From the NCBI GenBank assembly GCA_018303445.1, contig JAGVYE010000002.1:1-50712 (forward strand): a DNA stretch of 50,712 nucleotides, given 5' to 3'. Origin of the DNA: Candidatus Woesearchaeota archaeon. GTDB lineage: Archaea; Nanobdellota; Nanobdellia; Woesearchaeales; GW2011-AR9. The notes under the pieces are model-generated. The model did not search any database, was not told where the DNA came from, and worked only from the letters and a program-made list of their open reading frames with translations. The translations under genes and the position numbers were made by a program. Of this stretch, positions 7,006 to 42,833 are shown in pieces (within the stretch, counting starts at the first letter, position 1; each line of letters opens with the position of its first letter).

Positions 7006-7578
7006 ATGATGATAAAGATAGCGGCAAATTTTCAGAACAACAAGAAAACCTTTCTTACCAAAATGGACAAAAGCAAAAAAGGAGATATAGATGCGAAAGC
7101 TTTACCGATTATCAACATTATAAATTCTCTTCCGGAATATTACACCACCTCTTCTTGTTCTGGACGCGTCTATTTTTGGCGAAGTAAAGGGAGAAAAAAT
7201 GAAACGGAATGGCTTAAAGTGAGCCACGATAGTATTGAAACTTCTTTTTTTGAGTTAGAAGATACAGAAGGGGTGATATTCCTCCGCGTAGAGGATTTTA
7301 TTATCCATGTCGCTTGTAAAGATTTGCCGTCGGCAAACAAATTGATGATGGTAGCACGCCAAATGTATAAAAAAAGTTGTTTTTTAAGTGTGAGCAGCAA
7401 AATCGTGGTGGAAATAAAAGGAAGCGAATTTATGGATATGCCTTTTTACAGCAATGGTAAGCCATTGTATGCGGGAGATTTGCCATTTTTAATGGATATG
7501 ATCCAGCAAAAATTGAGAAAAATCTGGGAAAGAAGAGAAAAATTAGAAGAAAAAATAAAGAAGCTCACTTCTTCTTAA
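7006..7578 (+). CDS. taw3: tRNA(Phe) wyosine methyltransferase Taw3/TYW3
   Basis: DKSKKGDID, YYTTSSCSGR, WLKVSH and IIHVAC motifs. Confidence 0.92.
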   Translation: MMIKIAANFQNNKKTFLTKMDKSKKGDIDAKALPIINIINSLPEYYTTSSCSGRVYFWRSKGRKNETEWLKVSHDSIETSFFELEDTEGVIFLRVEDFIIHVACKDLPSANKLMMVARQMYKKSCFLSVSSKIVVEIKGSEFMDMPFYSNGKPLYAGDLPFLMDMIQQKLRKIWERREKLEEKIKKLTSS

Positions 7579-10500
7579 CAACTAACAAAACCAAAGCCAG
7601 CACCAAGGCAATAAAGACTAAAACAACGAGGCCAGCTAATAATAAAATATACTGGTCGCTTCCCCGAAAGGAAGCGCGGACAACGTTATCTTGTTGTTCT
7701 TGCTGCCGTGCGGCTAATTGCTGTTGTAATTCTGTGGATGTTATCTGACGCACTGGTTCTGTTCCTACGACTGTCGTCTTATTCTCTCTCTGGAGAGAGG
7801 CACATTCCTGGATAGTCAGAGGAATTTCCTGTTTCTCATCTGTTTTACCATCCCGAGAAACTTCTAGGGCCAGTTGGTAATTTCCCGGCTCAGCATCTGC
7901 AAAGTCAAGATTGAAGGTGAGCCGCTCTTCATTATCACTGCCAGAGAAGTCATCAAGTTCAATTCCGGTGCGGCGGAGGTTTAAGCCTAAAGCGCTATTG
8001 GCAACGGTAACTTCGAGGTCTTCTTCATCGCTTTTACCGACATTTTTAATGGTAACTTGTAAATTCGTTTCTCTGGAACATTGCAAGGTTGAAGCTCCCA
8101 GTGACGTTCTGGTGATAATGATGTTATGATTTTCACGGTCAACCTTAATCGTAATTTCTTGCTCATCTTCATGCTCTGTTCCATCGTCTGCTTCCCCTTG
8201 CACTTTGACTCTTACTTTATATTTTTCTTCCTCAAGATCTTCACCGCGCAAGTCAAAGATTAACGTCACTTCTTCTTCGTCTCCTTTATTAAGGTCAAAT
8301 TCGTCTGATTCTTTTTCTAAATCTTCTCCATCAACATCAAGGATTTCAACGGTGACAGAAACATCATCAATATCTTTAGTGTACTTATTTTCTAGTTCTA
8401 CCTTGATTTCATTTTCCTCCTCAAATTGGAGGTCACCACTTGTTTTTCCGTTAATCTCAATACTTTTGATGGAAAGAAAACTCTGAGTTTTGACAAAGAG
8501 AGGCATCGTTTTGCTCAGGGGCGTGCCAGTGCTATTTGCGGCCGTTACTTGTATGTCGCCAATTATACGCTTTCCCGCAGCTTGATTACTGGGAACAGAA
8601 ACTTTAAGTCCGATCGTGGCTTGCTCTCCAGCATTAAGATTCACCGGCGCATTTGTTATTTGAGCGCTGAAACGGCTGTCAACATTCATAAACTGAATTT
8701 GAATATTGGTGAGCCTTTCCGTCGTTCCTACATTTTTCACCGTAACATTGAGATTAGCATCTTGACCTCGCACCGCATTATCAAAAACAGCTTCCGCTGG
8801 CAGTTGAAGATCGGCAGGCTGAACAGCTACAACACGATAGGTTGAAAAACCAGTTACGTTGAAAACGAATTCTCCATTAGCATTTCTCACGAGCATACAT
8901 CGTGTTGCAGGACAATCGGCAAAGCCGCTCTGGGCATTAAAGCCATTGGCAACTTGAATAACCGGATTAGTAAAAGCTCTTTTGAGGGTAATAGCAGCAC
9001 GTTCTCCGGTAAACGGATTAGTCGCAGAGTTAACGGAAGCGATGCCGTCACTGATGGTTATCAGATTATCCAAATTAAGTAAATCCGCAGTTACCAAAGC
9101 ATCAAGGTTAATTCCGTCAGTGAAAAGTATTTTTCCAAAATTATTTTCTACTTGGAGATTAAAATTAGTGCGATTGTTAATTGTTCCCGTGGGCGGGATA
9201 TTAGTCTGTAAGTTTGTGGCTGCCGGTCGGTCTGTTACACGCACTTGCCAGACTCTTTCTTCACCAGGCATGACGGCTTTAACGGTATACATTCCGGCCA
9301 TGTTTTGCTGGAACGTGAAAATATCTCTTCCAGCGGCGGCGGCAACTTCAACGTTATCAACAAACCAGCGAAGATTATTAATGAAAGCCGCGTCAACGAG
9401 AATGGCGCGAAATTGTTTACTGACGCCTAACCCCACAACAACATTTGGCGTCGCTGGTTCAGCACTTTGAATGCAAGGTCCTTTAGCAATAGTGGTGGTT
9501 TGCGTAGCTTGCTGTGAATTGCTCCTGTAGGAAGCGGTAACGGTAAGTTGGTTTGGTCCATTGGATAAGTTTCCAGCAGGAATAACAAACGTAAACGTTT
9601 GCTGGGCATTGCTGCTAATGGTTGCGGAAGGTAAGGATAGATTTAGACCGTTCCCGCCTCGTACACTAACCACGACGTCGTTTTCTGTATTGCTTCCTCT
9701 ATTTGTAAGTTCAGCAATTAAATTTGTCGAAGGTTTACAGGTAATGCCGTTAGGATCGGCTAAAATAATATTGGTAATGGCAACATCTGCAGGATTTTGT
9801 TGCACCATCAGATTAAAGGCAAAGGCATCACTGTAGGTTCTTCTATTGTCAATGAAATCTCTTCCTTGTATTTGAATCTGAACAGGATACGTCCCTTGTA
9901 GAGTTGTAAAATGAACTGCTCCAGTGAGAGTTATACTTTGGCTCGCACCTGCGGCAAGATTTACAGGAGTTTGAGTTTGAGCGGTAAAACCGGAAGGCGA
10001 ACTCACTTGTGCAGTTATTCCCGTAATAAGATGTGGCAGGTTATTGATCACATTAAAAGCTAAAGAAATTTGTTGCTGCGGCTGCACGGGTTGACTATTG
10101 CCTCCTGCCGTTACAGCATTTTGATTTAGGCGCACATTATTAATGGCCAAAGCCGGAAGCACCGTGATGCTAAGATTTGCAGGAGCGGATAAATCTTGTC
10201 CATCTGTTACGCGTACAGGGAAGCGACTTGCTCCAACATCAGTTTGTCGTGGTGTTCCTCTGAAGCGCAAGGGATTATTTGGATCGACGGTCAGCCAGCT
10301 TGGCAAGGAAGAACCGGTCGAGGAGATTGCCAATTGAGCCTGAGTATTATCTACGTCTGTGGCAGCAACTAAAAGTCCGGTAAATGGCACTCCTTCCACT
10401 GCTTGGGCTGGTGGAGGAACAGTAGCGATAACAGGAGCATCATTAACCGCATTAACGTTTACGGTAATAACAGCAGAGTTACTATTTGCCTCTCCATCAT

Positions 10501-11581
10501 TGACGGTAAACTGGGTGCTCATGGCACTATTGCTATTAGCACTTGGTGTTAGACCTACAGTACAAACTCCATTCGTGCAACTGGCAGGAGCGGTAATGCT
10601 GCCATTAGTAACATTCGTTACGGTAGCAGTTTCGGCTCTGTCTCCTACATCCGGATCAGTGTATTGAAGAATTACCGTTACCGCAGTATCTTCATTGGTT
10701 ATAGCGAGCGCATTCTGGGCAACAGGGGGATCGTTAGTATTGATGACAGTAACACTAAATTTTTGTCTGGCAGCGGGAGCTCCGCCATCACTTGCGGTTA
10801 TGGCGAGAAGGATAGTTGTTCCCACCTCACTATTCGTGGGAGTACCACTCAGAACTCTCGTAGTAGGATTGAAGGTTAACCATGAAGGTAAACTTTGGCT
10901 TCCAAAGGTAACGGGGTTATTTTCAGGATCTGTTGCAGTTACAGTATATGAGTACTGGGAATCTTCGTTTATCTGTGTAATGGGAGTAGATGTAAATACA
11001 GGAGGTCGATTGTTTTGAGTTCCTGGCGTCCCTCGATCTCCCGCGCCAAAAGTTGTAAGAGCAACTCCCCATCTATCGCCGTCATCATTAGATATTACAA
11101 AAGGAGTTTTTACTTGAGAAAATTCCATGGAAACACCGATAAGGTTAGGAAAAAATCGGTTATTGTATTCGACTCGATCTATTTCAGTCACACCATCACG
11201 CAGAATTATTTCATCCCCAGCATTCCCTAAGGTAAATCCGCTATATTGATAGGCGCAGATTACCCCCCCATTTGCCGCAGAATTGGAATTGCGGCATAAC
11301 ACTAGGTAGCCATTAGTGGGAATAAGAAGAGGACCGGCATTGTTTATAACATGGGATTCACCGCCGTTATCACTTATTGTCCAGCCATTAACATTTACGG
11401 CACTGGGGGCATCATTGTATAATTCAAACCATTCGCCATTAGAGTCAGATACAGCATTAGGGTCTTTCATGATTTCATTAATGAAAACCTCTCCCCAAGC
11501 AGCGGGAGCGGTAATAATCCCTAAAAGAAAAGCAATAAATAAAAGATTTAGGTGGTTTCTCATTTTATATGATGCCTCCAA
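7565..11581 (-). CDS. Large membrane-anchored surface protein (lamin-tail domain, cadherin/Ig repeats, CARDB-like, S-layer-like C-terminus)
   Basis: Signal peptide. VFINEIM.DP...GEWFELYN and GTPG (lamin-tail domain). PPVFTS/EDS.YSY/LPSWL and NDPP/NDAP cadherin-like repeats. Acidic C-terminal Ig domains and a C-terminal TM helix followed by KKK. Confidence 0.85.
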   Translation of the reverse strand: MEASYKMRNHLNLLFIAFLLGIITAPAAWGEVFINEIMKDPNAVSDSNGEWFELYNDAPSAVNVNGWTISDNGGESHVINNAGPLLIPTNGYLVLCRNSNSAANGGVICAYQYSGFTLGNAGDEIILRDGVTEIDRVEYNNRFFPNLIGVSMEFSQVKTPFVISNDDGDRWGVALTTFGAGDRGTPGTQNNRPPVFTSTPITQINEDSQYSYTVTATDPENNPVTFGSQSLPSWLTFNPTTRVLSGTPTNSEVGTTILLAITASDGGAPAARQKFSVTVINTNDPPVAQNALAITNEDTAVTVILQYTDPDVGDRAETATVTNVTNGSITAPASCTNGVCTVGLTPSANSNSAMSTQFTVNDGEANSNSAVITVNVNAVNDAPVIATVPPPAQAVEGVPFTGLLVAATDVDNTQAQLAISSTGSSLPSWLTVDPNNPLRFRGTPRQTDVGASRFPVRVTDGQDLSAPANLSITVLPALAINNVRLNQNAVTAGGNSQPVQPQQQISLAFNVINNLPHLITGITAQVSSPSGFTAQTQTPVNLAAGASQSITLTGAVHFTTLQGTYPVQIQIQGRDFIDNRRTYSDAFAFNLMVQQNPADVAITNIILADPNGITCKPSTNLIAELTNRGSNTENDVVVSVRGGNGLNLSLPSATISSNAQQTFTFVIPAGNLSNGPNQLTVTASYRSNSQQATQTTTIAKGPCIQSAEPATPNVVVGLGVSKQFRAILVDAAFINNLRWFVDNVEVAAAAGRDIFTFQQNMAGMYTVKAVMPGEERVWQVRVTDRPAATNLQTNIPPTGTINNRTNFNLQVENNFGKILFTDGINLDALVTADLLNLDNLITISDGIASVNSATNPFTGERAAITLKRAFTNPVIQVANGFNAQSGFADCPATRCMLVRNANGEFVFNVTGFSTYRVVAVQPADLQLPAEAVFDNAVRGQDANLNVTVKNVGTTERLTNIQIQFMNVDSRFSAQITNAPVNLNAGEQATIGLKVSVPSNQAAGKRIIGDIQVTAANSTGTPLSKTMPLFVKTQSFLSIKSIEINGKTSGDLQFEEENEIKVELENKYTKDIDDVSVTVEILDVDGEDLEKESDEFDLNKGDEEEVTLIFDLRGEDLEEEKYKVRVKVQGEADDGTEHEDEQEITIKVDRENHNIIITRTSLGASTLQCSRETNLQVTIKNVGKSDEEDLEVTVANSALGLNLRRTGIELDDFSGSDNEERLTFNLDFADAEPGNYQLALEVSRDGKTDEKQEIPLTIQECASLQRENKTTVVGTEPVRQITSTELQQQLAARQQEQQDNVVRASFRGSDQYILLLAGLVVLVFIALVLALVLLVVKKK

Positions 11582-30702: not shown

Positions 30703-32685
30703 ATGTACAAAAAGAGGGAAAAGATAGAGGTATGTAGGTCTTTTTCTAACTCTTTCTTCCCTGAAAAACAAGGGCAAGTTACGATTTTCATTATTCTTGG
30801 ACTGATCCTTATTTTTGTAGTTGCGCTTATTTTCTTAACCAAGCAGGAAGTGGTGAAAATTAAGCCGGAAGAACTTATTCCTAGCGAAAAAGGGAAAATA
30901 GAGAATTTCGTCAGAGCCTGCATCAAGAGTGTCGGTGAGGAAGCCTTATTTCAACTGGGCTTGCAAGGCGGTTATATTGAAATGCCTTCTGAAATTAGCA
31001 ATGACGCCAGCCGCCATGTGCGTCTTTCCCCGTTCTTAGTTGTTCCCTATTGGGCTTATGGGGAAGTGAAGGATATGCCTTCGCGAGAAGAAATCAAGCA
31101 GCGTCTTGATGCGTATATGGAAGAACATCTTAGAGGCTGCCTCTTTGATTTAAACGCCTTTAAAGAAACGTACAATCTTATTGAAAAAACAGAGATCACG
31201 GCAAATACGGAAATACTGGACAACAAAGTTATTTTTTATGTCCATTGGGGCCTTGAAGTTCGTGACAAAAATGGGGAAAAAATCAGTGAAGTGATTAACC
31301 ACCAGGGAGAATCGCCGATTCAGCTTGGCAAGGTGTATGAAACGGCAAAAGCAGTTGTTGAACGGGAATTACTTACCTTAAAATTGGAAGATATAACACA
31401 GGATCTTATTGCTTTAGAACATCCTAATGTCCCCTTAACCGGTCTGGAAATGAGTTGCAAACGCAAAACATGGGATGTGAGCACCGTTAAAAAAACACTA
31501 AAGGATATGTTGCGTGTTAATATCAAAAAGCTGCGTGTGAAGGGAACAGAATTTGTGGAATTTCCGGAAGAGCTGCCATATTATCAGAATCATTACGTCT
31601 GGAATATGGGAGAAGGATTTGCCCAACAGGACATTAGTGTCGTGTTTAATTTTGAAAATACGTATCCGTTTACATTTCAAGTAACACCACTTACGGGAAC
31701 AAAAATGGCGAGCAATCAACAAGGAGGAACAGACTTAATTTCCTTTTTGTGCCTGCAAACCTGGAAATTCACTTATGATGTTATGTACCCTGTAGTCGTG
31801 AGAGTGAAAGATGAAAAGACAGGGTATAATTTCAATATGGCTTTTACCGTTCACTTGGTGAGAAATATCCCTAACCGAAAAGTGGCTATTGAAGCGAGAA
31901 ATCCAACTTCGCTTAACTTTCCTACCGATGAGGAATATTGCCGAGATGTGCGCATACCCATGACAGTAGTTACAAATTCCCAAGTTGTTAGCGACGAAGC
32001 AGGAGTTAATGATATTACGCCTCTCGAGGATGTAGAGATAAGTTTTTCTTGCTTGAAATATAGTTGTGAAATGGGCCAAACTGATTTTGATTTTGAAGAG
32101 AGCGGCTACCAAGCGGACTTAACAGTTAACTACCCTTACTGCGTGGGTGGGATTGTCCGGGGAGTAAAGGAAGGATATAAAGAAACATGGCAGAGAGTGG
32201 TAACAGAACATGATAAAATGGTGGAGCTGAATCTTGTTCCTCTTCATACTCTTCCTTTAAAAGCGCTAAAAGTTGTAAAACATGATCTAGAAGATTTGCA
32301 AGAAGAAAATCTGCAGACTGAAGAATTGGATGAAAATGAAGTGGCGCTGGTACGCTTAAAGCGTTTTGTCAATGGAACCCTTAACCATGAAATTCAGCAA
32401 GTGATAAGCGCTAAATTATCTTTGGAAACAGTTGACCGCTTAAAAGTTGAATTTCTGGCAGAAGCGGATTATCAATATGAAGTTGAGATTAACGTCTTTG
32501 ATGAAGAAAATCTCATTGGCGGATATAAAGCCAACTGGACCATTCCTTGGGATACGCTGCAAGAAGCAGAAGAGATTACATTCCATACCCTGACCCTGAA
32601 AAATCCACCGCAAGAAGATCTCTTTCAGCTCCTCCTTAACCTGGGGCCGGAAAGTGGAAAAGTTCCCTTGCCGGAAATTAAATGA
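30703..32685 (+). CDS. Class III signal peptide (pilin-like N-terminus) large extracellular protein
   Basis: EKQG/QVTIFIILGLILIFVVAL followed by FVRACI...LGLQGGY and several Cys pairs. First gene of a coupled operon. Confidence 0.8.
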   Translation: MYKKREKIEVCRSFSNSFFPEKQGQVTIFIILGLILIFVVALIFLTKQEVVKIKPEELIPSEKGKIENFVRACIKSVGEEALFQLGLQGGYIEMPSEISNDASRHVRLSPFLVVPYWAYGEVKDMPSREEIKQRLDAYMEEHLRGCLFDLNAFKETYNLIEKTEITANTEILDNKVIFYVHWGLEVRDKNGEKISEVINHQGESPIQLGKVYETAKAVVERELLTLKLEDITQDLIALEHPNVPLTGLEMSCKRKTWDVSTVKKTLKDMLRVNIKKLRVKGTEFVEFPEELPYYQNHYVWNMGEGFAQQDISVVFNFENTYPFTFQVTPLTGTKMASNQQGGTDLISFLCLQTWKFTYDVMYPVVVRVKDEKTGYNFNMAFTVHLVRNIPNRKVAIEARNPTSLNFPTDEEYCRDVRIPMTVVTNSQVVSDEAGVNDITPLEDVEISFSCLKYSCEMGQTDFDFEESGYQADLTVNYPYCVGGIVRGVKEGYKETWQRVVTEHDKMVELNLVPLHTLPLKALKVVKHDLEDLQEENLQTEELDENEVALVRLKRFVNGTLNHEIQQVISAKLSLETVDRLKVEFLAEADYQYEVEINVFDEENLIGGYKANWTIPWDTLQEAEEITFHTLTLKNPPQEDLFQLLLNLGPESGKVPLPEIK

Positions 32686-35600
32686 AAATGATACAGAAAA
32701 AAGAGATGATTGTACTGCTGATGATTTGGCTAGTTCTGAGCATGCCCATCACTCAAGCCTTCAGTATCTCAAATGTGAAAGCTGACGATGTGACACAACA
32801 TACAGCCAGCATTTCCTGGGAAACGGATGAGCCGGCAAATGGTTTTGTTGAGTATGGTGAAAATAAAGAGCAGTTGCAGAAAATAGGCGATGCTAAGGAA
32901 CTTTTAACTCATGCCTTTCCCCTTTCACAACTGAAGGAGAATACAACATATTATTTTAAAGTGGAAAGTAAGGAGGTTATAGATGATAACAATGGACAGT
33001 TATATTCTTTTGAAACTTTGCCGCCAGATAAAGAAGCTCCTCTTTTAGAAGTTACAATGCCCACAAGTGTGGCAGGAAATAAAGTTGATGTTACCGTAAA
33101 AACAGAAAGAGGAGCGACGATTACGGTTTTTGTGAATAATGTGAATATACGAAGTTCTCTTGCCAGGGAGGAAGTAACAACTATTTCAGCAGTTACGATT
33201 GACGGAAATAAGGAAAATACGATTACCGTTAAAGTTAAGGATAGTGCGGGAAATGAAGCCGCTTTTACAGGAAAAGTTTTTTCTGACAATGCGCCTCCCA
33301 AAATAACGTTACAAAAAATTCCAGAACTTATTGCCGAAAATAAGATCAGACTGCAAGGAACAGTTTCTGAAGATAGCAGCATGGAAGTTTTTGTGAATAA
33401 TCGGTCTGTAAAAACAGTACAAGGAATTTCTCTCAATGAAGAAATACGACTGCAGGAAGGGGCTAATAAGATTCGCGTTGTCGCGAAGGATAAAGCAGGC
33501 TGGGAAAGTGATGAAGAAATTACCGTTGATGCTGATACTGTTCCTCCAAAAGTAGATTTTGAATTTGAAGAAGGGTCTGAATATTATGAAGGAAGAGCGG
33601 ACACAGATATTAAAGGAGAGACAGAAGCAGGGGCAAAAGTATTTCTATACATTTATCAACGTCGGGGGGATCAGTTCCGCGCCGACTTTTCAAGACCAGT
33701 TGACATCGTAACTGCTGACAAAGAAGGAAAATTTACATTCAAAGACGCAAAGTTTCCTCCTTCTGTGTTTACAATCGGCAGAGGAAATGCAACGAGAGTG
33801 ACGCTTGTCCCGCGGCAAGTTCCTACGGGATTAGAGGAAGTGTTAATTTCACCATTAGACAAGTTGACGCAGGAACAGCGCAAGTCTTTTGATGTCATCA
33901 TCATCGCCGAGGATAAAACAGGAAAGAGCGGATTTAAGAAAAGAGTGGTGAATGTCAATTCCTGTTTTTCGTCGAGTTCTGATTTTAATATCATCCCCAT
34001 TCCCGAATTTCAAGCTCCGTTCCGCCTTAATCCCGATTTGATGGAGGAAGGAAGAGAAACTATCCAGGCCGTTTTCAATCTCACTTACCGAGGAAATGGC
34101 ATTCCCCGTTTGAATTCGAGAACTAATCTGCTGGAAAGCCCGTATCAAGTCCAGAGCGTAACCTTTGCCAAAGCCTGCACTCAGGAAACCACAGGCACAG
34201 ATGATTATTCCACTGGATGCCAGCTTCTTCCGTCAGGAGCACTCACATCGCAACCAAATCATGACAAAACGGCCTTCTATGTAACTTCTAATTTACGGCC
34301 GGCGAAAGAATTTCTGCAACGAAAGCCAGATCTTTGGGATGATTTCAAGAATCGTCAATTGAAAATGCCGCTCAAAGTTACAGTGCGCTATCGTGAACGG
34401 GATGCTAACGGCGGGTTTGGGCCAACCAAGACGCAAGTGCAATGCCAGGATTTAGGATATTTCGTTGATATTCCAGCGGAAGTGCAGAATTTTATTCCTG
34501 ACGCTCTGGCGGATACGTCCATCGCTATCTTGAATGAAACCATTAATGCCATTGAAGAAATCAAACCGTCTCTAGAAACGGCGATGATGGCCACGGGAAT
34601 TGGCTGTGTGGCTTCATTCCTTACAAAGTTAATCGCAAAATTTTACCGATTTTTTATCGCCCATTTTGAGCCTTGGTTAACAAAATTTAATCCCACAAAA
34701 AAAGAGGAAGGGTGTCCATTTATTGACGGGCAGCATAACTTGCTGCTTGATGATACGATTGAAAATTGGCAGAATATTGGAGTATTAGGCACTTCTGTTG
34801 ATGATAACATCAGGTTTTCGAAACGATGCCCGCAAACGGCAAAAGCGTGGGAAATGGAAGCCTTCTTAGACCAAGCTTACCGCTGGACATGCGATCGTTT
34901 CTTATGCCGAGCTGTACCAGCAAGATGGACGGAAAGTAAAGAAGAACCAGAAATTAAAGAAGTGTTGCAAAAACAATTGCAATGTTCCGCAACAAGTAAT
35001 GGGGTGTACTTGCAAAAAATCGAGAATTGCCACGAGCAATTAGAAAAAGATCCTAGTGCGAAGGAATTTCTGCGCATCCATAAACAGAGCGTAGTAGAAT
35101 GCTGGCGCGATGTGGAAGGAAATCTCTTTTTTGTTGATAACGCGAAACAAGAAAGCTTGAATGACCAAGGCATCTGGCGGCTTAGCCCTATTCCTACTTT
35201 TGGACAAGTGGGCCGTAAAGCACCTTCAGGAGATTTATTAGTCTATAAGCCCGAAGGTTCTCAAACTTATATGACCAGCGTCGACAAAACGTGTAAACAA
35301 GTGTGCGAAAGTAAGAAAGGATATGAAGCCGTCAGTGATGGTTTTTTCGTCAATGGCGTGAATAGCTGTTATAAGCAAGAAGAAAACGGATTGAAAAGTC
35401 AAACGGATATTCTCCGAGGAGAGAAAATAGGAGCCGGATATACAAACGATTGTTTTATTGACCGAGCTAATCCCAGCGCGGGGTTGTATGAATGTGTATG
35501 TCAGACGAAAGTGAGTCAGGCAAACGTACCAAAGACTAAACCTACTTCGCGCGAAGCGAAGAAGAAAGAAGTAGTGAATAATGTTGAAGTTGTGGAAGAA

Positions 35601-38000
35601 TGGAGTTATCACCAAGATCGTCTCTATAAGGAAACAAATGGAGTGTATGGAACATTATATTCAAAATTGAGGTATTATGGCGGGCGAGATTTAAGCGGCG
35701 CCTTTGGATTAGATTATGGATTAGATAATTTTCGAGATAAGAATTTCACGACCACACAAGTCAATCCGAGCACAGATTGGTTTGGCACGTTTCAAGCAGT
35801 TTGCCTGCCGGGAATTAATGCGCGGTTAACGATGCTGCAAAGTGTCCTGCAGGGCTTGCAAGGATGTATTGTGGAAGCAAAGTATACGGGGCTGAGGGAT
35901 GCGGGAACGTGTAAAACTATTTTCACACAATATTTCTGTGGCTTGATCTATAAAGGAATTGCTCTTCTTGCCAGCAGTTGTTCGCCTTTATCATTTAAAG
36001 ACCTGGGAAAAGGCTTTGAAGATCCAACGGAAGGAGGAGTTCAAGCCTTCTTTGATTCGGGATTTAAGGCCATTCCGGAAGCGATTGAAAGTTCAATTTC
36101 GGAAGTGCAGTCCGATTATGGCAATGCTAAATTTAACCAATTCTTTTCCACGGGAGTGCAAGGATTTGCCGAATCCATTTGCTTAGCAGCCTTTGGTTAT
36201 GATTTCCCATTTGGCATGGATTTCATTCTTGATGCCGCGTATTCATTTCCCACAGCAACGAATGTCTTTTTCCCTGTAGCGAATAGAGAACTGGCAACAT
36301 TTGACCCTGTAAAAGGAACAGCGGTGTATAATTACGAATTAGCAGGCGCGATTCTGCCGGGATGTAACTTTCGCGGATATAAAACAGAATTAAAGTGTGT
36401 AACAATCGAAGATGCAGGGAATCCTGGCCTTTCCTGTTCCGATCAGCGTTGCGATTGCATGCAGGCAACAGGATTACGACCAGAATCAGCAGGAGCACGA
36501 ACACATAAAATAGATGGAGGAACGAGTTTCAGCGGAGTACAGAGAGGAAAATTGTTCGACCTTCCTTTAGTCTCTCCACAAAAAGTCAGCAGTGAGTTCC
36601 GCTATGATCACGTCGTTTTAGATATCATCTTAGATCAAAATGAAGATCCAACAAGATGTTTTGATGAAGGATATAGAACGCCAAATGGAGGAAGATTTTA
36701 TTTCCCCATTAGTGATGTTGGGCCGGAGAGAGTCGGCACTTGTCAAGTTGATGTTCTCACAGGACGGTTTAAATGCCCGGAAATTGCTTCGCTGTTTGGA
36801 GGAGGGCAAACCTATTTTGAACATCCTTTTATCACTTGTTTTGATAAACTGAATAATCAATATGTTGATTGCGAGACGCCAAATCTGTTTATTGTTGGCC
36901 AAGGAAATATTCAAGTGAAACCGCATCTGAATATTGGAAAAGGCGCTTATTGTTTAGAAGTAGCTGATAATCGAGGGTTGCTTACACCACTCACAATTCC
37001 CATTCCAGAAGGCACGCAGGGAACGTACGCCCCACCACTCGATCTTGGTCCTGTATCCCAAGAAATGATTATAGGGGGAACGAGAGCCACAATTGTTCCG
37101 GCGCATGATAGTGATAATGGATGTGGAGGAGAAGGGAGACGAGATTTGCACGTCATTGATTATCCAGGACCGGCACAAGTAATACAAGAGAAATCATTTA
37201 CATTTAAGTACCTGCCACAAGGAGGAGATCAGTATACTATTACTCTTCCTCCTGATGTTGATGTTGTTAAACCAAATCCTCATCATCCTACAGCACAATA
37301 TGAAATAGATGCAACGACGAGAGAATTAACACTGGCAGGAGTAAAAGTGCTCAGTGCTGAGGACATTAACAACGCCGTCTTTCAGTATCAAGGATTTACC
37401 TTTGACAAAGTTCTGGGACATCCTACACCTGCACCAGGGAAAAATGGACAGTGCACATATAGAATTTCAGCAGCACGAACAGGAACAGCGGCAAAGATTG
37501 GATCGCTTTCCATTACCGCGAAACTCTTGCAAGCGCCAACAAGCGGCAGCTGCTTCCAGGCCACACAGCTTGTTGCACCCAGTCAATTAGGAAGGAATTT
37601 AGTTTCTCTGCCCATTCGCGTGCAAGCAGAGACGGTAGAACAAACACAAGCGACAGGGATACATGAAGATTTCACACGGGGAGATTATGACCGTGTTATT
37701 GGCAAAGCTCAGCCTATTGTACAGCGAAAGGAGAGTAATGTAGAACATGTCCGTGGATTATACTATTGGATTGCCAGTTTAATTATGAAAGGGAAAGGAG
37801 TTGAACCGTATAAAGGAGAAATAAAAGGATTATTAGAATTGTTCTTTGACCGAAATTATAATGACAAGGAAATTTTAGATAGTTATGATACGGTGATAAC
37901 AAATGATCCGCAATTTCAGAAAATATGCACCTATCTGTGTGAAGTAGATACAGAGATAGATAATAAATATGCAACAAAGTGTCAAAATGGCTGCACATAA
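32682..38000 (+). CDS. Giant secreted protein: FN3 + Ig-like repeats + Cys-rich/helical core
   Basis: Sec signal, FN3 (ISWETDEPA..VEYG..LKENTTYYF) and Ig repeats (D.APP, EGANKI..A.DKAG). Many Cys and internal hydrophobic/amphipathic helices. ATGA overlap with the upstream gene. Confidence 0.85.
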   Translation: MKMIQKKEMIVLLMIWLVLSMPITQAFSISNVKADDVTQHTASISWETDEPANGFVEYGENKEQLQKIGDAKELLTHAFPLSQLKENTTYYFKVESKEVIDDNNGQLYSFETLPPDKEAPLLEVTMPTSVAGNKVDVTVKTERGATITVFVNNVNIRSSLAREEVTTISAVTIDGNKENTITVKVKDSAGNEAAFTGKVFSDNAPPKITLQKIPELIAENKIRLQGTVSEDSSMEVFVNNRSVKTVQGISLNEEIRLQEGANKIRVVAKDKAGWESDEEITVDADTVPPKVDFEFEEGSEYYEGRADTDIKGETEAGAKVFLYIYQRRGDQFRADFSRPVDIVTADKEGKFTFKDAKFPPSVFTIGRGNATRVTLVPRQVPTGLEEVLISPLDKLTQEQRKSFDVIIIAEDKTGKSGFKKRVVNVNSCFSSSSDFNIIPIPEFQAPFRLNPDLMEEGRETIQAVFNLTYRGNGIPRLNSRTNLLESPYQVQSVTFAKACTQETTGTDDYSTGCQLLPSGALTSQPNHDKTAFYVTSNLRPAKEFLQRKPDLWDDFKNRQLKMPLKVTVRYRERDANGGFGPTKTQVQCQDLGYFVDIPAEVQNFIPDALADTSIAILNETINAIEEIKPSLETAMMATGIGCVASFLTKLIAKFYRFFIAHFEPWLTKFNPTKKEEGCPFIDGQHNLLLDDTIENWQNIGVLGTSVDDNIRFSKRCPQTAKAWEMEAFLDQAYRWTCDRFLCRAVPARWTESKEEPEIKEVLQKQLQCSATSNGVYLQKIENCHEQLEKDPSAKEFLRIHKQSVVECWRDVEGNLFFVDNAKQESLNDQGIWRLSPIPTFGQVGRKAPSGDLLVYKPEGSQTYMTSVDKTCKQVCESKKGYEAVSDGFFVNGVNSCYKQEENGLKSQTDILRGEKIGAGYTNDCFIDRANPSAGLYECVCQTKVSQANVPKTKPTSREAKKKEVVNNVEVVEEWSYHQDRLYKETNGVYGTLYSKLRYYGGRDLSGAFGLDYGLDNFRDKNFTTTQVNPSTDWFGTFQAVCLPGINARLTMLQSVLQGLQGCIVEAKYTGLRDAGTCKTIFTQYFCGLIYKGIALLASSCSPLSFKDLGKGFEDPTEGGVQAFFDSGFKAIPEAIESSISEVQSDYGNAKFNQFFSTGVQGFAESICLAAFGYDFPFGMDFILDAAYSFPTATNVFFPVANRELATFDPVKGTAVYNYELAGAILPGCNFRGYKTELKCVTIEDAGNPGLSCSDQRCDCMQATGLRPESAGARTHKIDGGTSFSGVQRGKLFDLPLVSPQKVSSEFRYDHVVLDIILDQNEDPTRCFDEGYRTPNGGRFYFPISDVGPERVGTCQVDVLTGRFKCPEIASLFGGGQTYFEHPFITCFDKLNNQYVDCETPNLFIVGQGNIQVKPHLNIGKGAYCLEVADNRGLLTPLTIPIPEGTQGTYAPPLDLGPVSQEMIIGGTRATIVPAHDSDNGCGGEGRRDLHVIDYPGPAQVIQEKSFTFKYLPQGGDQYTITLPPDVDVVKPNPHHPTAQYEIDATTRELTLAGVKVLSAEDINNAVFQYQGFTFDKVLGHPTPAPGKNGQCTYRISAARTGTAAKIGSLSITAKLLQAPTSGSCFQATQLVAPSQLGRNLVSLPIRVQAETVEQTQATGIHEDFTRGDYDRVIGKAQPIVQRKESNVEHVRGLYYWIASLIMKGKGVEPYKGEIKGLLELFFDRNYNDKEILDSYDTVITNDPQFQKICTYLCEVDTEIDNKYATKCQNGCT

Positions 38001-38550
38001 AAAAGCAAGTTTGGGAGTAGAAGTGCTGTTGATGTTAATCCTCGTAGTTATGATAAGTGCAGTGATACTGTTCCTTATTAAATCTGGAATGATTAGTGTG
38101 AAAGCTAGTGGGAGTGAAGAGCCTATTCTGAATACGGAGTTTATACCCTTAGAGAGAGAAGGGGTTTTAACTCTTACTTCATTTTCTTTCTGCCGTTATG
38201 TGGACAGTAATTATCGATGCTTGCAACCTTTGGAGCGCTTTCCTCTCGGCGCTGATGTCTACTTTATTTTTACTGTAGAAAGCAGTACAGAAAATGAAAA
38301 AGTTATCCTCATTGAGAATTATAAACTTAAAAATCCACAAGGAATAGTTATTCTTGATGTTGACGCACGAAATGATTTCTATGTGGAAAGTACCAGCGAG
38401 AAAAAAAATGAAGAAATTACATTTAAAGATTATTTTATTACTGATCTTTCATTAGAGGAAGGTGTTTATACTCTAGAATTACATCTAGAAAATCCCATTT
38501 TAGCGAAAAATGTTAAAGCGACAAAAAAAGTAGAGTTGTTTAGAAAATGA
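37969..38550 (+). CDS. Class III signal peptide (pilin-like) protein with Ig-like C-terminal domain
   Basis: HKKA/SLGVEVLLMLILVVMIS and EGVYTLEL beta-sandwich motif. True start is probably ATG 37987. Confidence 0.75.
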   Translation: MQQSVKMAAHKKASLGVEVLLMLILVVMISAVILFLIKSGMISVKASGSEEPILNTEFIPLEREGVLTLTSFSFCRYVDSNYRCLQPLERFPLGADVYFIFTVESSTENEKVILIENYKLKNPQGIVILDVDARNDFYVESTSEKKNEEITFKDYFITDLSLEEGVYTLELHLENPILAKNVKATKKVELFRK

Positions 38551-40388
38551 AAAAATCCATACTCGTCTTATTCCTAGGAATTTTTCTTATATTGAGCTTA
38601 GTTTCCGCCCTTGATTCTAACTTGGATGGAACTGGAAACGATGATGATCCGTACCGTTGGAAAAATGGAATTCTTGGAGTTAATGAGAACTGTGAGGTAC
38701 GGATTTTTCAGGAAATGCAATGGGTGGAAAGATTACAAGCTTCACCTATTCTCGTTATTGGTTCAGGAAATGTTGATGATCCTTTCACATTAAGTGATAC
38801 AAATAAAGGATTGGTATGCGAGCCGATGTCAGTAGCACGAGAGAGAATCTACGTTGTTTTCCTTGATCTAAATACCAAAAAATGGACTCGAAGTTCTCGA
38901 GTTGGCGCTGGCCAGCCCTCTTCACCAAGTAGTGTACAGGTTGTTCCTAAGGATGTTTGTAGGGACACGCCTTGTCTCCAATTAAATGATGTGTGGCTCA
39001 GGATAAGTACATTTCTCACCAAAGTTGATTCCTCCAAGAAAAGGCAAGTGTGGGATACGTCATTAGGGTGGGTTGATCCATCAAAACTTAAAGAAATAGC
39101 AGCGTCAGTTATAGTGCCGCCTGTAACACCGCCAACTCCAAAACCACCTGTTGGGGTAAGTAAAAAAATAATTGTGGACACTGCTTTGAATGAATTCAGA
39201 AGCTGGAATCAAGGAACTCTCAGTGAAACAGACACAGGAGCGCAAGTTCTTCTTAATAAGTATGCTACTTCTATAAATGCTGCTTCTTGGAATTCAGGAA
39301 CTCCTTGGTCTGCTATCTTTATCTCCTGGGTTATGCAGGAAGCGGGCATTACTGATTTTCCCAGTAATGGTTACCATGCGGGATATTTCAAATCCATTCG
39401 TGAGAGTCCTGGCATATGTACAACGCATCGCATGAGCGAATTTAATTCCATCCAAGCAGGAGATATTCTCTGTGCATGCAGGGGAAATGGTTGTCTTATT
39501 ACTTACGATGATGCAACTTCTCCCAAGGAAAGTCATTGTGATATTATAACTGAAATTTCAGACGATTCTCTTGCCATCGTTGGTGGAAATGTTCATTCGG
39601 CTTCCTGTGGAGCGAATCCTAATGTTGGCTGTACAGTGAACAACCGACCCATAAGTAAATCGAACATTATTAGCAATGCACGTTATTTTGGTTTTATCAG
39701 TTGTGGAGAAACAACAGGAGAACCTTCAGAATTTACAGATTATGATTTTCATCAGACAAAAAAATATGTAGACACGACGCATCTGCAAAAAGTGGAAGAT
39801 AAAGCAGCAGAAGCAGGCATGGATGCTTGTTATCCTTTAGTTACGATTCTTTTTGAGTCCCAAGGAAATCCTGAAGTAATCGGCGTAGATGCAAATGTTC
39901 GTACTTGTAATACCATCTCACGACGGACATTTATTATTAATACTCTTCCTTCAGAATGTGGTAGTTATGCCACGTCGGATGGAAGTACAAGACTGCGTGA
40001 GGATTGTGAAAATGGAGTTAACAATGCATGTGTAAATTCTATAGGTGATAGATCTTATCAATTACCCATACCAACACAGAATGATTTTTGTTCTTCATCA
40101 TATGATCAACGATACACGTATGGTATTGGTTTAGGACAAACTACTCCCGAGGAAGGTTCTACTTCCATTACTATTAAAGGAAAAACATTTACACATTGCG
40201 GTCTCTTTGATGTCGATACCAATATTGAAGCGACAATTAACGAATTGCAAAAGAAAAAAGAAGCAGCAGAAGCTAGTTGTAGAAATAATAAGACCTGTGT
40301 AGTTCGTGAAACATTTAAAAGATATCGTGGGATTCTGGATACAGAAAGAGTTCAAGCTTTTAATAGCTGCCAAACAAAAAAGAAATAA
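38547..40388 (+). CDS. Secreted putative peptidoglycan hydrolase: DUF2272/CHAP-like domain + lytic transglycosylase (SLT)-like domain
   Basis: Signal peptide and Pro linker. PWSAIFISWVMQEAG...H..Y...AGDILC..R...HCDI...VGGNV matches DUF2272. TILFESQGNP...GIGLGQ...LFDVDTNIE...Y.G matches SLT motifs I-III. Confidence 0.75.
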   Translation: MKKSILVLFLGIFLILSLVSALDSNLDGTGNDDDPYRWKNGILGVNENCEVRIFQEMQWVERLQASPILVIGSGNVDDPFTLSDTNKGLVCEPMSVARERIYVVFLDLNTKKWTRSSRVGAGQPSSPSSVQVVPKDVCRDTPCLQLNDVWLRISTFLTKVDSSKKRQVWDTSLGWVDPSKLKEIAASVIVPPVTPPTPKPPVGVSKKIIVDTALNEFRSWNQGTLSETDTGAQVLLNKYATSINAASWNSGTPWSAIFISWVMQEAGITDFPSNGYHAGYFKSIRESPGICTTHRMSEFNSIQAGDILCACRGNGCLITYDDATSPKESHCDIITEISDDSLAIVGGNVHSASCGANPNVGCTVNNRPISKSNIISNARYFGFISCGETTGEPSEFTDYDFHQTKKYVDTTHLQKVEDKAAEAGMDACYPLVTILFESQGNPEVIGVDANVRTCNTISRRTFIINTLPSECGSYATSDGSTRLREDCENGVNNACVNSIGDRSYQLPIPTQNDFCSSSYDQRYTYGIGLGQTTPEEGSTSITIKGKTFTHCGLFDVDTNIEATINELQKKKEAAEASCRNNKTCVVRETFKRYRGILDTERVQAFNSCQTKKK

Positions 40389-41110: not shown

Positions 41111-41132
41111 TACGTACGTGATTGGAGAGATT

Positions 41133-41924
41133 ATGCCAGAATTGCCAGAAGTGGAGACGATTGTACGACAATTGAGAAAGAAGGTCTTAGGACGAAAGAT
41201 AGTGACAATTAAGATCAAAGATACGAAAGTTATTGACAAGAAGGTAAGACGGTTTGTAGGGAAACCGATTAATAGTATAGAGAGAAGAGGAAAAACAATT
41301 ATTATTTCTTCAGATAAGAATTATCTTGTAGCCCATTTGCGGATGACAGGACATTTTTATCATATCGAAAACAAGGAAGATGAGGACTATCAAAAGTATT
41401 TGGCAGGAATATTTTACCTAAATGATAAGTCTTTTTTTACTTTTAACGAAATAAGAAGGTTTGGCAGTGTTAAATTTATGAATAAACTGCAGTTGCAGGA
41501 GTTTCTTCAGTCTTTAGGACAAGAACCATTGGACATACAGAAAGAAGAATTTGTGGAACTGCTGAGAAAATATCCTTCATCGACGATAAAGAACAAACTT
41601 TTAGACCAAAGAATGATCGCAGGGATTGGCAATATTTATGCCCAGGAAGCGTTGTATCATGCGGGTATTGATCCACGAAGGAAAATGAAGGAAGTTTCAA
41701 CACAAAAGTTAGCTGTACTTCATAGAGAAATGCAGCGAATTCTGAAATTAGCAATAGAGAAAAATGGAACTACCGTGAGTAATTATAGCCACCTTGATGG
41801 GAAAGGCAATTTTCAGGATTTTTTAGTTGTCTATCAGAAAGAATTTTGCCCACGAAAGCATCCTCTGCAGCGTCTCGTTATAGGGGGGAGAGGGACGTAT
41901 TATTGTAAGGAATGCCAAAAATGA
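41133..41924 (+). CDS. mutM: Formamidopyrimidine-DNA glycosylase
   Basis: MPELPEVE N-terminus, RRGK, HLRMTG, RRFG, LLDQ..IAGIGNIYA.E and GRGTYYC..CQ motifs. Confidence 0.95.
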   Translation: MPELPEVETIVRQLRKKVLGRKIVTIKIKDTKVIDKKVRRFVGKPINSIERRGKTIIISSDKNYLVAHLRMTGHFYHIENKEDEDYQKYLAGIFYLNDKSFFTFNEIRRFGSVKFMNKLQLQEFLQSLGQEPLDIQKEEFVELLRKYPSSTIKNKLLDQRMIAGIGNIYAQEALYHAGIDPRRKMKEVSTQKLAVLHREMQRILKLAIEKNGTTVSNYSHLDGKGNFQDFLVVYQKEFCPRKHPLQRLVIGGRGTYYCKECQK

Positions 41925-42715: not shown

Positions 42716-42807
42716 GCCCCAGTAGCTTAGCCCGGTGGAGCGGATGGCTGTTATTCAATTACAGAAAAGATACCATCAGGTCATCGGTTCAAATCCGATC
42801 TGGGGCG
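42716..42807 (+). tRNA. trnN: tRNA-Asn(GTT) with 18-nt canonical intron (42754-42771)
   Basis: Acceptor GCCCCAG/CTGGGGC+G, GATGG-CTGTTA[intron]A-CCATC and ATCGG-TTCAAAT-CCGAT. TTTATAAA upstream and T-rich tract downstream. Confidence 0.94.
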
Positions 42808-42833
42808 CTATTTATTTTTTGATGTTAAAATTA

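Follow-up and report, generated by a model that had tools for sequence, protein, structure and literature searches.

A predicted two-domain murein hydrolase closing a conserved surface cassette in a Woesearchaeota archaeon

We have analysed a stretch of 50,712 nucleotides, called the window here, from a Candidatus Woesearchaeota archaeon (GTDB lineage Archaea; Nanobdellota; Nanobdellia; Woesearchaeales; GW2011-AR9; assembly GCA_018303445.1, contig JAGVYE010000002.1, positions 1 to 50,712 of the forward strand), and in it the gene of a predicted murein hydrolase, referred to below as the hydrolase. The gene is a single open reading frame (ORF) that stands last in a cassette of four plus-strand genes, which overlap or abut (Table 1). 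Its ATG and the TGA that ends the preceding gene overlap in the letters ATGA. A preliminary description, made from the letters of the window alone, had proposed that one secreted protein carries a DUF2272 domain and an SLT-like domain and could cut both the peptide stems and the glycan strands of murein. All the motifs it quoted are present at the positions it gave, in one frame of this ORF. The span it assigned to the protein, 39160..40388, is correct as the start of the DUF2272 domain, but the gene begins 613 nt further upstream, and as a whole protein this span leaves out a signal peptide and an N-terminal region of 200 residues.

Table 1. Cassette genes, parts of the hydrolase and further features of the window
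Feature	Position (nt)	Strand	Remarks
660-aa protein	30703..32685	+	First cassette gene; pilin-signal-like N-terminus (KQG/QVTIFIILGLIL), signal read by eye
1772-aa giant secreted protein	32682..38000	+	Cassette gene; Cys-rich, FN3/Ig-like N-terminal domains
193-aa membrane protein (tm193)	37969..38550	+	Cassette gene directly upstream of the hydrolase; N-terminal hydrophobic, pilin-signal-like segment
Hydrolase ORF	38547..40388	+	613 aa and stop; last cassette gene
Sec-type signal peptide	38547..38609	+	Residues 1-21: MKK, hydrophobic core, VSA/L; read by eye
N-terminal domain, candidate adaptor	38610..38972	+	Residues 22-142, ~120 aa; in common with P0003 and the same-genus orthologue
Short Trp-rich module	38973..39071	+	Residues 143-175; C-x-(E)-[ILV]-[DN]-x-VW...W...W, by pattern search
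Pro-rich linker	39108..39155	+	VIVPPVTPPTPKPPVG; read from the translation
DUF2272 domain	39159..39707	+	Residues 205-387; Pfam envelope 248-352
Ser255, predicted catalytic triad	39309-39311	+	From alignment
His330, predicted catalytic triad	39534-39536	+	From alignment
Asn348, predicted catalytic triad	39588-39590	+	From alignment
Divergent SLT-like (GH23-like) domain	39771..40385	+	Residues 409-613
Catalytic-type Glu437-Ser438	39855-39860	+	Invariant, 25/25 (alignment A1)
Cys-rich insertion	39891..40106	+	About residues 449-520; between Glu-Ser and GLGQ
GLGQ	40128..40139	+	Residues 528-531; counterpart of SLT GLMQ (hhalign), Gly replacing Met
LFDVDTNIEA	40203..40232	+	Residues 553-562; counterpart of SLT 'DPxxNI'
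Tyr593-x-Gly595	40323-40331	+	Counterpart of SLT 'AYNxG'
1338-aa ORF	7565-11581	-	
DNA glycosylase, Fpg/Nei, bacterial type	41118-41924	+	Just downstream of the cassette; Fapy_DNA_glyco, H2TH, zinc finger
tRNA-Asn(GTT)	42716-42808	+	93 nt
RelA/SpoT homologue, 630 aa	43841-45733	-	Bacterial-type long form; HD_4, RelA_SpoT, TGS, ACT

The middle part of the hydrolase belongs to DUF2272. Pfam family PF10030 matches the whole protein at 64.8 bits (E 1.2e-17, residues 248-352, cut-off 27) and the middle piece alone at 68.2 bits (E 1.1e-18), which bears out the assignment in the preliminary description. The motifs on which that assignment had been based are PWSAIFISWVMQEAG, starting at residue 253 (nt 39303), HCDI at residues 330-333 (nt 39534) and VGGNV at residues 345-349 (nt 39579). 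When we aligned 15 archaeal and metagenomic sequences, which are 34-48% identical to the domain of the hydrolase, the domain positions W54, S55, H130, C131, D132, G147 and N148 were invariant in all 15, and a separate alignment of 14 sequences agrees. The positions S55, H130 and N148 correspond to Ser255, His330 and Asn348 and form the predicted catalytic triad, with Asn348 as the residue that we infer to be its third member. Conserved Cys residues of the domain are found at 291, 308, 310, 315, 331 and 386. The preliminary description had pointed to a Ser in place of the usual Cys. This Ser is present, but it is the norm of DUF2272: it stands in 15 of 15 aligned sequences, and the accessible part of PMC10318531 describes a family with a conserved Ser where papain has Cys, grouped with the NlpC/P60, CHAP and amidase families and found mostly in proteobacteria.

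Endolysin families of PHROGs match the DUF2272 stretch at E values of 3e-5, 0.0065 and 0.024, and in NCBIfam the hydrolase is matched by TIGR02594 alone, weakly (E 0.04). The PDB search with the DUF2272 alignment returned nothing related (RtcB at E 1.4), and the search with the single hydrolase sequence gave 1gbg alone, at the chance level of E 0.48. No short stand-alone relatives of the domain were found by a word-index search among proteins of 104-333 residues. In terms of distribution, DUF2272 is present in 9 of 401 sampled genomes of the phylum, with one copy in the source genome. On the one hand, the copy in the hydrolase resembles the family in exceeding the Pfam cut-off and in keeping the Ser, the His and a polar third residue. 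On the other hand, it is archaeal, rich in Cys and fused to a predicted glycan-cutting domain, whereas the family is mostly proteobacterial in the accessible part of PMC10318531. Judged by title and abstract, none of the papers found to mention DUF2272 concerns archaea.

The C-terminal domain lies outside the curated SLT family as now defined. For residues 391-613, NCBIfam returned nothing and PHROGs returned just rows of unknown function at E 0.07-0.26. Searched exhaustively by phmmer with residues 392-613, a set of 1,835,955,588 representatives contains 27 matching proteins at E <= 0.001, 21 of them at E <= 1e-10. The domain is present in 3 of the 401 phylum genomes, all three in the source genome's own family, and a related-locus search with alignment A2 gave one genome locus and five metagenome loci. 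For the analysis of conservation we used alignment A1, which joins the C-terminal piece of the hydrolase to 24 phmmer relatives (25 sequences) and omits P0002, a truncated near-identical copy, P0029, a fragment of 87 residues, and P0028, a spurious-looking match in five short stretches with retroelement-type Pfam matches. P0002 has 427 residues and differs from the hydrolase at two positions (Cys91 to Gly and Arg311 to Ser). In all probability it comes from a population variant and was cut short by the end of a contig.

Throughout A1, Cys428, Glu437, Ser438, Gly440, Arg459, Gly528-Leu529-Gly530 and Leu553 are invariant (25/25). Conservation is also high at Gln531 (24/25), Asn559 (22/25), Tyr593 and Gly595 (23/24 each) and Cys608 (24/24). 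These residues include the core of FESQGNP at residue 436 (nt 39852), GIGLGQ at residue 526 (nt 40122) and LFDVDTNIE at residue 553 (nt 40203), which the preliminary description had read as SLT motifs I-III. Identity among the relatives is no more than 23-52%, and we therefore take the invariance of the motif residues to be more than chance.

We consider it likely that the C-terminal domain is homologous to SLT/GH23. When the alignment of the family was divided and compared by hhalign with 19 archaeal SLT domains, its N-terminal half matched template columns 11-48 (Prob 93%, P 3.7e-7) and its C-terminal half matched columns 47-119 (Prob 84%, P 7.7e-6). The two matches are colinear and the halves abut at column 47 of the SLT profile, indicating that the extra residues are inserted in the loop that leads from Glu-Ser to GLMQ. 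Glu437-Ser438 aligns to the ES of 17-19 of the archaeal SLT domains. As controls, the halves and the whole gave P values of 0.34-0.58 against the reversed SLT alignment and of 0.04-0.13 against the DUF2272 alignment. Separate hhalign comparisons with the archaeal SLT alignment A5 gave 76% (P 2.3e-5) for A1 and 46% (P 2.1e-4) for A4, an alignment of seven sequences. Pfam SLT matches below the cut-off of 21.3 bits were seen in 4 of 26 scanned relatives (19.6, 19.0, 19.0 and 15.9 bits) and in a further relative, the L048 ORF (16.9 bits). In the feature search of the ESM Atlas, 15 of the 30 nearest clusters carry SLT. The three SLT motifs of the preliminary description are present and colinear with the SLT profile in two halves.

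The domain shares with the family-1 lytic transglycosylases of GH23 (PF01464; E. coli Slt70, MltC and MltE) the motif order Glu-Ser (closing a helix), G-L-x-Q, 'DPxxNI' and 'Y-x-G', and it is predicted to cleave, like them, the bond between N-acetylmuramic acid (MurNAc) and N-acetylglucosamine (GlcNAc) by one catalytic Glu. It differs from them in staying below every curated threshold, in reading GLGQ and not GLMQ at motif II, in having eight conserved Cys residues and in the spacing of its motifs. From Glu437 to Gly528 the hydrolase has 90 residues with five Cys, and the Glu-to-GLG interval is 82-141 residues, usually with five Cys, in 25 of 25 members of A1. In canonical SLT domains from the source genome's own family of archaea, the interval from Glu to GLMQ is 13-14 residues in 18 of 19 and 20 residues in one, where a few rows that the pattern mis-anchored or missed were read by eye. 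The Cys-rich insertion, which had been put at about 75 residues between motifs I and II, thus measures about 76 residues with five Cys and is common to the whole family, of which we regard it as the defining trait. It begins at Asp448, and an acidic residue at this position, Glu+11, is present in 25 of 25 members of A1 and in none of the correctly anchored canonical SLT domains. Goose-type lysozymes carry an extra auxiliary Asp, which Asp448 recalls. Considering this resemblance, the reaction may be hydrolytic and not of the lytic-transglycosylase type.

Upstream of the two enzyme domains, the N-terminus MKKSILVLFLGIFLILSLVSA/LD reads by eye as a Sec signal, in agreement with the secretion that had been proposed, and a similar hydrophobic N-terminus is seen in the sequence listing for most of the 25 C-terminal-family relatives. 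The N-terminal domain that follows (residues 22-142) is kept in P0003 and in the same-genus orthologue, which differ from the hydrolase in their C-terminal domains. It has no family match in Pfam, and the ESM Atlas search gave no usable match for it. The Trp-rich module likewise matches no family; a pattern search detects it in 11 of the 25 C-terminal-family proteins and in 9 of the 17 that occupy the operon position of the hydrolase. This module, C-x-EID-x-VW with two spaced Trp, stands at varying sites of P0005, P0008, P0010-P0012, P0014, P0017, P0021 and P0023. The ESM Atlas model of the whole protein of 613 residues has a pTM of 0.38 and a pLDDT of 0.54.

The cassette is conserved beyond the window. 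The order of giant protein, small protein and hydrolase is also found in L047, L049, L050 (same sequence as L006 and L003) and L051, where the giants are 37-42% and the small proteins 40-47% identical. The protein of 660 residues belongs to no Pfam family. A homologue of tm193 is present in 56 of 61 sampled genomes of the family, with one match per genome, and in 15 of these 56 a Pfam SLT match lies at most about 4 kb downstream of tm193 on the same strand, as cross-checked by hand; canonical SLT domains occur in 37 of the 61 genomes. In G260 (L039, G260:C18), an open frame of 1982 residues encodes a giant-protein homologue that ends in DUF2272, and the small membrane protein comes next. This fusion, as read from the sequence, ties the enzyme to the giant protein. 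The N-terminal 420 residues of P0004, a further member of the C-terminal family, show no similarity to the giant or the 660-residue protein of the cassette.

The proteins at the position of the hydrolase, called slot proteins here, vary in their domains. Two of them (521 and 635 residues) combine DUF2272 with the C-terminal domain, one of 815 residues has FGE-sulfatase, DUF2272 and the C-terminal domain, one of 915 residues has GDSL, the C-terminal domain and Metallophos, and the one in G223 has DUF2272 with a weak Glucosaminidase match. We took 12 further slots where no SLT match was seen near tm193, of which 11 were usable, and scanned them with Pfam at E <= 0.01. Five of the 11 carry a murein-hydrolase family at this E value: Phage_lysozyme2, Peptidase_M15_4 and Amidase_2 once each over the cut-off, and Hydrolase_2 and M23 once each below it. 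Metallophos was found in 5 of 11, GDSL in 3 of 11 (one below cut-off), and Exo_endo_phos, DUF218 and FGE-sulfatase in one each. The slot protein of G379, a genome of the same genus (L054:4190-6049, minus strand, 620 residues), has no Pfam match at E <= 0.01 and matches residues 1-200 of the hydrolase alone (38% identity, E 1e-36), and its last 400 residues are unrelated to DUF2272 or SLT. An orthologous position, a kept N-terminus and an unrelated C-terminus, as expected of a polymorphic effector, are therefore found together in G379, and its C-terminal 400 residues suggest an enzyme or toxin load. The domain sets differ across the 17 slot proteins. The first 200 residues appear to be a constant adaptor, and the enzyme domains behind them appear to be exchanged between species. 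In our reading, the surface cassette is the conserved part, and the two enzyme domains of the hydrolase together are a single exchangeable load on it.

Fusion partners of the C-terminal family were counted in a Pfam scan of 26 of its proteins. DUF2272 is fused to it in five proteins, GDSL esterase in three (one below cut-off), Peptidase_M23 in two (one below cut-off), Metallophos, FGE-sulfatase and Exo_endo_phos in two each and the SleB-like Hydrolase_2 in one, below cut-off, and six proteins have no fusion partner. Judged by these domain matches, the family keeps the company of wall-active enzymes. The T4SS_pilin family (PF18895) is fused to it in three distant members (P0025, P0026 and P0027, one below cut-off), which recall the VirB1-type transglycosylases of secretion machines.

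The source genome (1.22 Mb, 54 contigs, 95.5% complete) has no match to Transgly or Transpeptidase, and none to M23, NlpC/P60, Amidase_2 or AnmK. It has one Glucosamine_iso match and a single match to Mur_ligase_M, a family that also matches wall-less control archaea. By these matches the cell appears to make no murein, and since no murein polymerase or transpeptidase was found, a foreign wall is the likely target. Remodelling of the cell's own wall was rejected as a role, as Transgly and Transpeptidase were not found in a genome of this completeness. Pseudomurein was set aside as a target on general knowledge, as lysozyme-type enzymes are, to our knowledge, not known to cut its beta-1,3 bonds. 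The same genome encodes a second secreted SLT-like protein of 292 residues (L007:1075-1953, minus strand, in G000 contig C50), which has the canonical spacing QESYGEP...GLAHMQ...DPEKNL and a Pfam SLT match of 32.3 bits when two stretches are summed.

Taken together, we consider it probable that the hydrolase is an exported, disulfide-rich two-enzyme hydrolase that is aimed at bacterial peptidoglycan and comes from a surface cassette. The protein would be exported by Sec and would then fold oxidatively. Its DUF2272 domain, a papain-fold relative of NlpC/P60 and CHAP, could cut an amide bond of the peptide stem by Ser255, His330 and Asn348, and the C-terminal domain, as a diverged muramidase of the SLT/GH23 type, could cut the MurNAc-GlcNAc glycan by Glu437. 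The insertion of about 76 residues with five Cys is placed at the SLT loop that borders the substrate groove, where it may shape substrate binding, probably as an extra disulfide-stapled subdomain. The N-terminal 200 residues may dock on an apparatus of the giant and the membrane protein. The cassette could be a surface apparatus that grips bacterial partners or prey and breaches their walls locally.

Several of our results weigh against this interpretation. The Pfam match to SLT (PF01464) that the preliminary description would lead one to expect is absent from the hydrolase, residues 391-613 having no Pfam match of any kind at E up to 10. The hhalign probabilities range from 46 to 93%, with none above 95%. 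In the PDB search with A1, the top two rows, both MltC, at E 0.12 and 0.92 are at chance level and are not counted as evidence; they are on par with the rows for RuBisCO (E 0.35) and a T-cell receptor (E 0.8) in the search with A4. In the accessible part of PMC10318531, the activity of DUF2272 is speculative, with no assayed member, and a papain fold that has Ser as its nucleophile may work poorly or not at all. Metallophos and GDSL are about as common as murein hydrolases in the 11 slots, and in view of this the target may extend to other parts of the bacterial envelope or may be a different one altogether. Finally, the hydrolase is linked to the cassette by gene order and one fusion.

Inactive binding domains are common in murein hydrolases, and DUF2272 could be such a domain here, a non-catalytic module for wall binding or targeting that leaves all cutting to the SLT-like domain. 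The lack of any PDB relative of DUF2272 by sequence would fit this, and so would the family-wide Ser, for which the accessible part of PMC10318531 reports no assay. However, all 15 aligned sequences keep the Ser, the His and the Asn at just 34-48% identity, as for catalytic residues, endolysin families of PHROGs match the domain, and in the slot DUF2272 is paired with a glycan-cutting domain or replaces other peptidases. The accessible part of PMC10318531 also argues that the negatively charged pocket of DUF2272 could support catalysis. In terms of these observations, we find a protein with one active enzyme unlikely. We judge it equally improbable that the hydrolase is a scavenging enzyme, released freely to digest dead bacterial wall in groundwater for its amino sugars or amino acids. 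The hydrolase has a Sec signal and carries no anchor of its own, which would suit such an enzyme, and the one Glucosamine_iso-family gene and the small genome are in line with it. AnmK, which would serve the use of anhydro-muropeptides, was not found in the genome, however, and the gene is translationally coupled by its ATGA overlap to a conserved surface cassette. Moreover, the enzyme is joined to the giant in G260 and the N-terminal module is kept while the enzyme domains swap, and these two observations suggest delivery rather than bulk digestion.

The C-terminal domain might also not be a muramidase and might only echo the SLT motifs in another fold, or act on another substrate such as a different glycan or the envelope of an archaeal host, pseudomurein included. 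This would explain why no curated family matches the domain, why the PDB searches stay at chance level and why an interval of 82-141 residues breaks the canonical spacing. We regard it as very improbable, considering that two independent profile matches are colinear while the negative controls are clean, that Glu-Ser and GLG are invariant and that fusion to M23, SleB-like and DUF2272 domains is repeated; for pseudomurein, the beta-1,3 bonds mentioned above are a further obstacle.

Beyond the two-enzyme hydrolase that we prefer, a more far-reaching reading is possible and is offered tentatively. The gene could represent one allele in a polymorphic effector system of these archaea, a contact-dependent machine for breaching walls, in which the cassette presents the effector of its last gene. 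A constant adaptor would then be followed by envelope-degrading domains that are swapped even within a genus, with loads comprising DUF2272, the Cys-stapled SLT variant, lysozymes, amidases, M15/M23 peptidases, GDSL esterases and phosphoesterases. In the same reading, the insertion-bearing SLT would be a new subfamily of GH23, possibly with hydrolytic chemistry. The architecture of the hydrolase can be compared with known systems. Two-domain phage endolysins and tail lysins, in which CHAP or NlpC/P60 is combined with a lysozyme or SLT domain, would likewise join a cutter of peptides and a cutter of glycans on one chain, and endolysin families of PHROGs match the DUF2272 domain of the hydrolase. 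In polymorphic effectors, the delivery part stays constant and the domains that follow it are exchanged as modules, as in the slot. Unlike either of these, the hydrolase has no phage context and its carrier is an archaeal surface cassette. It differs from polymorphic effectors also in the immunity gene, which was not seen and is not expected, because the producer would have no murein.

Murein hydrolases in these archaea are a phenomenon that has already been published, and the archaeal setting stressed in the preliminary description is correct for this genome but is already in print for the DPANN group. In their accessible parts, PMC9723730 (Vigneron et al. 2022) describes GH23 genes in Woesearchaeota and proposes predation, and PMC12352652 (Strock et al. 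2025) reports that 175 of 3,706 archaeal genomes encode homologues of peptidoglycan hydrolases, with Nanoarchaeota standing out. The terms DUF2272 and SLT have 0 occurrences in the main text of PMC12352652. The accessible parts of these two papers and of PMC8204110 (Castelle et al. 2021) share with our results the archaeal group, the inferred target in the bacterial wall and the idea of attachment or attack. The hydrolases described there are recognisable SLT/GH23 proteins of up to 3000 residues, whereas the hydrolase of the window has 613 residues and an SLT-like domain that escapes Pfam. The four-gene cassette and the N-terminal adaptor are not described in the accessible parts of the three papers, and the cassette is not described in that of PMC6393860, from the literature on DPANN archaea and polymorphic toxins. 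Accordingly limited, what appears to be new is the insertion-bearing family derived from SLT, the archaeal fusion with DUF2272, and the logic by which a cassette found almost throughout its family closes with a constant adaptor and variable enzymes.

What has been published on the interaction of DPANN archaea with bacteria is, for the most part, evidence from matches to recognisable SLT/GH23 domains or to modular hydrolases. Our results suggest that a part of the wall-cutting arsenal of these archaea is invisible to curated models, and they define a rare family, derived from SLT, in which a disulfide-rich insertion is conserved. DUF2272, a papain-fold family of the Ser type, gains a clear functional context. 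The link of the enzymes to a module-swapping cassette that almost the whole family has also provides specific proteins, and candidate binding partners, for the idea of an attack on bacteria. Stable, disulfide-rich murein hydrolases may in addition be of interest to the enzybiotics field.

The window is of archaeal character, as seen from a protein that starts with a GatD domain, from a PAC2 protein and from the tRNA-Asn of 93 nt. The DNA glycosylase and the RelA/SpoT homologue are of bacterial type. A scan for sigma-70 promoters and terminators gave 14 sites against 22.8 expected, with a sigma-70 model applied to an archaeal host. The tRNA-Asn(GTT) gene exceeds the standard length by about 20 nt and probably contains an intron.

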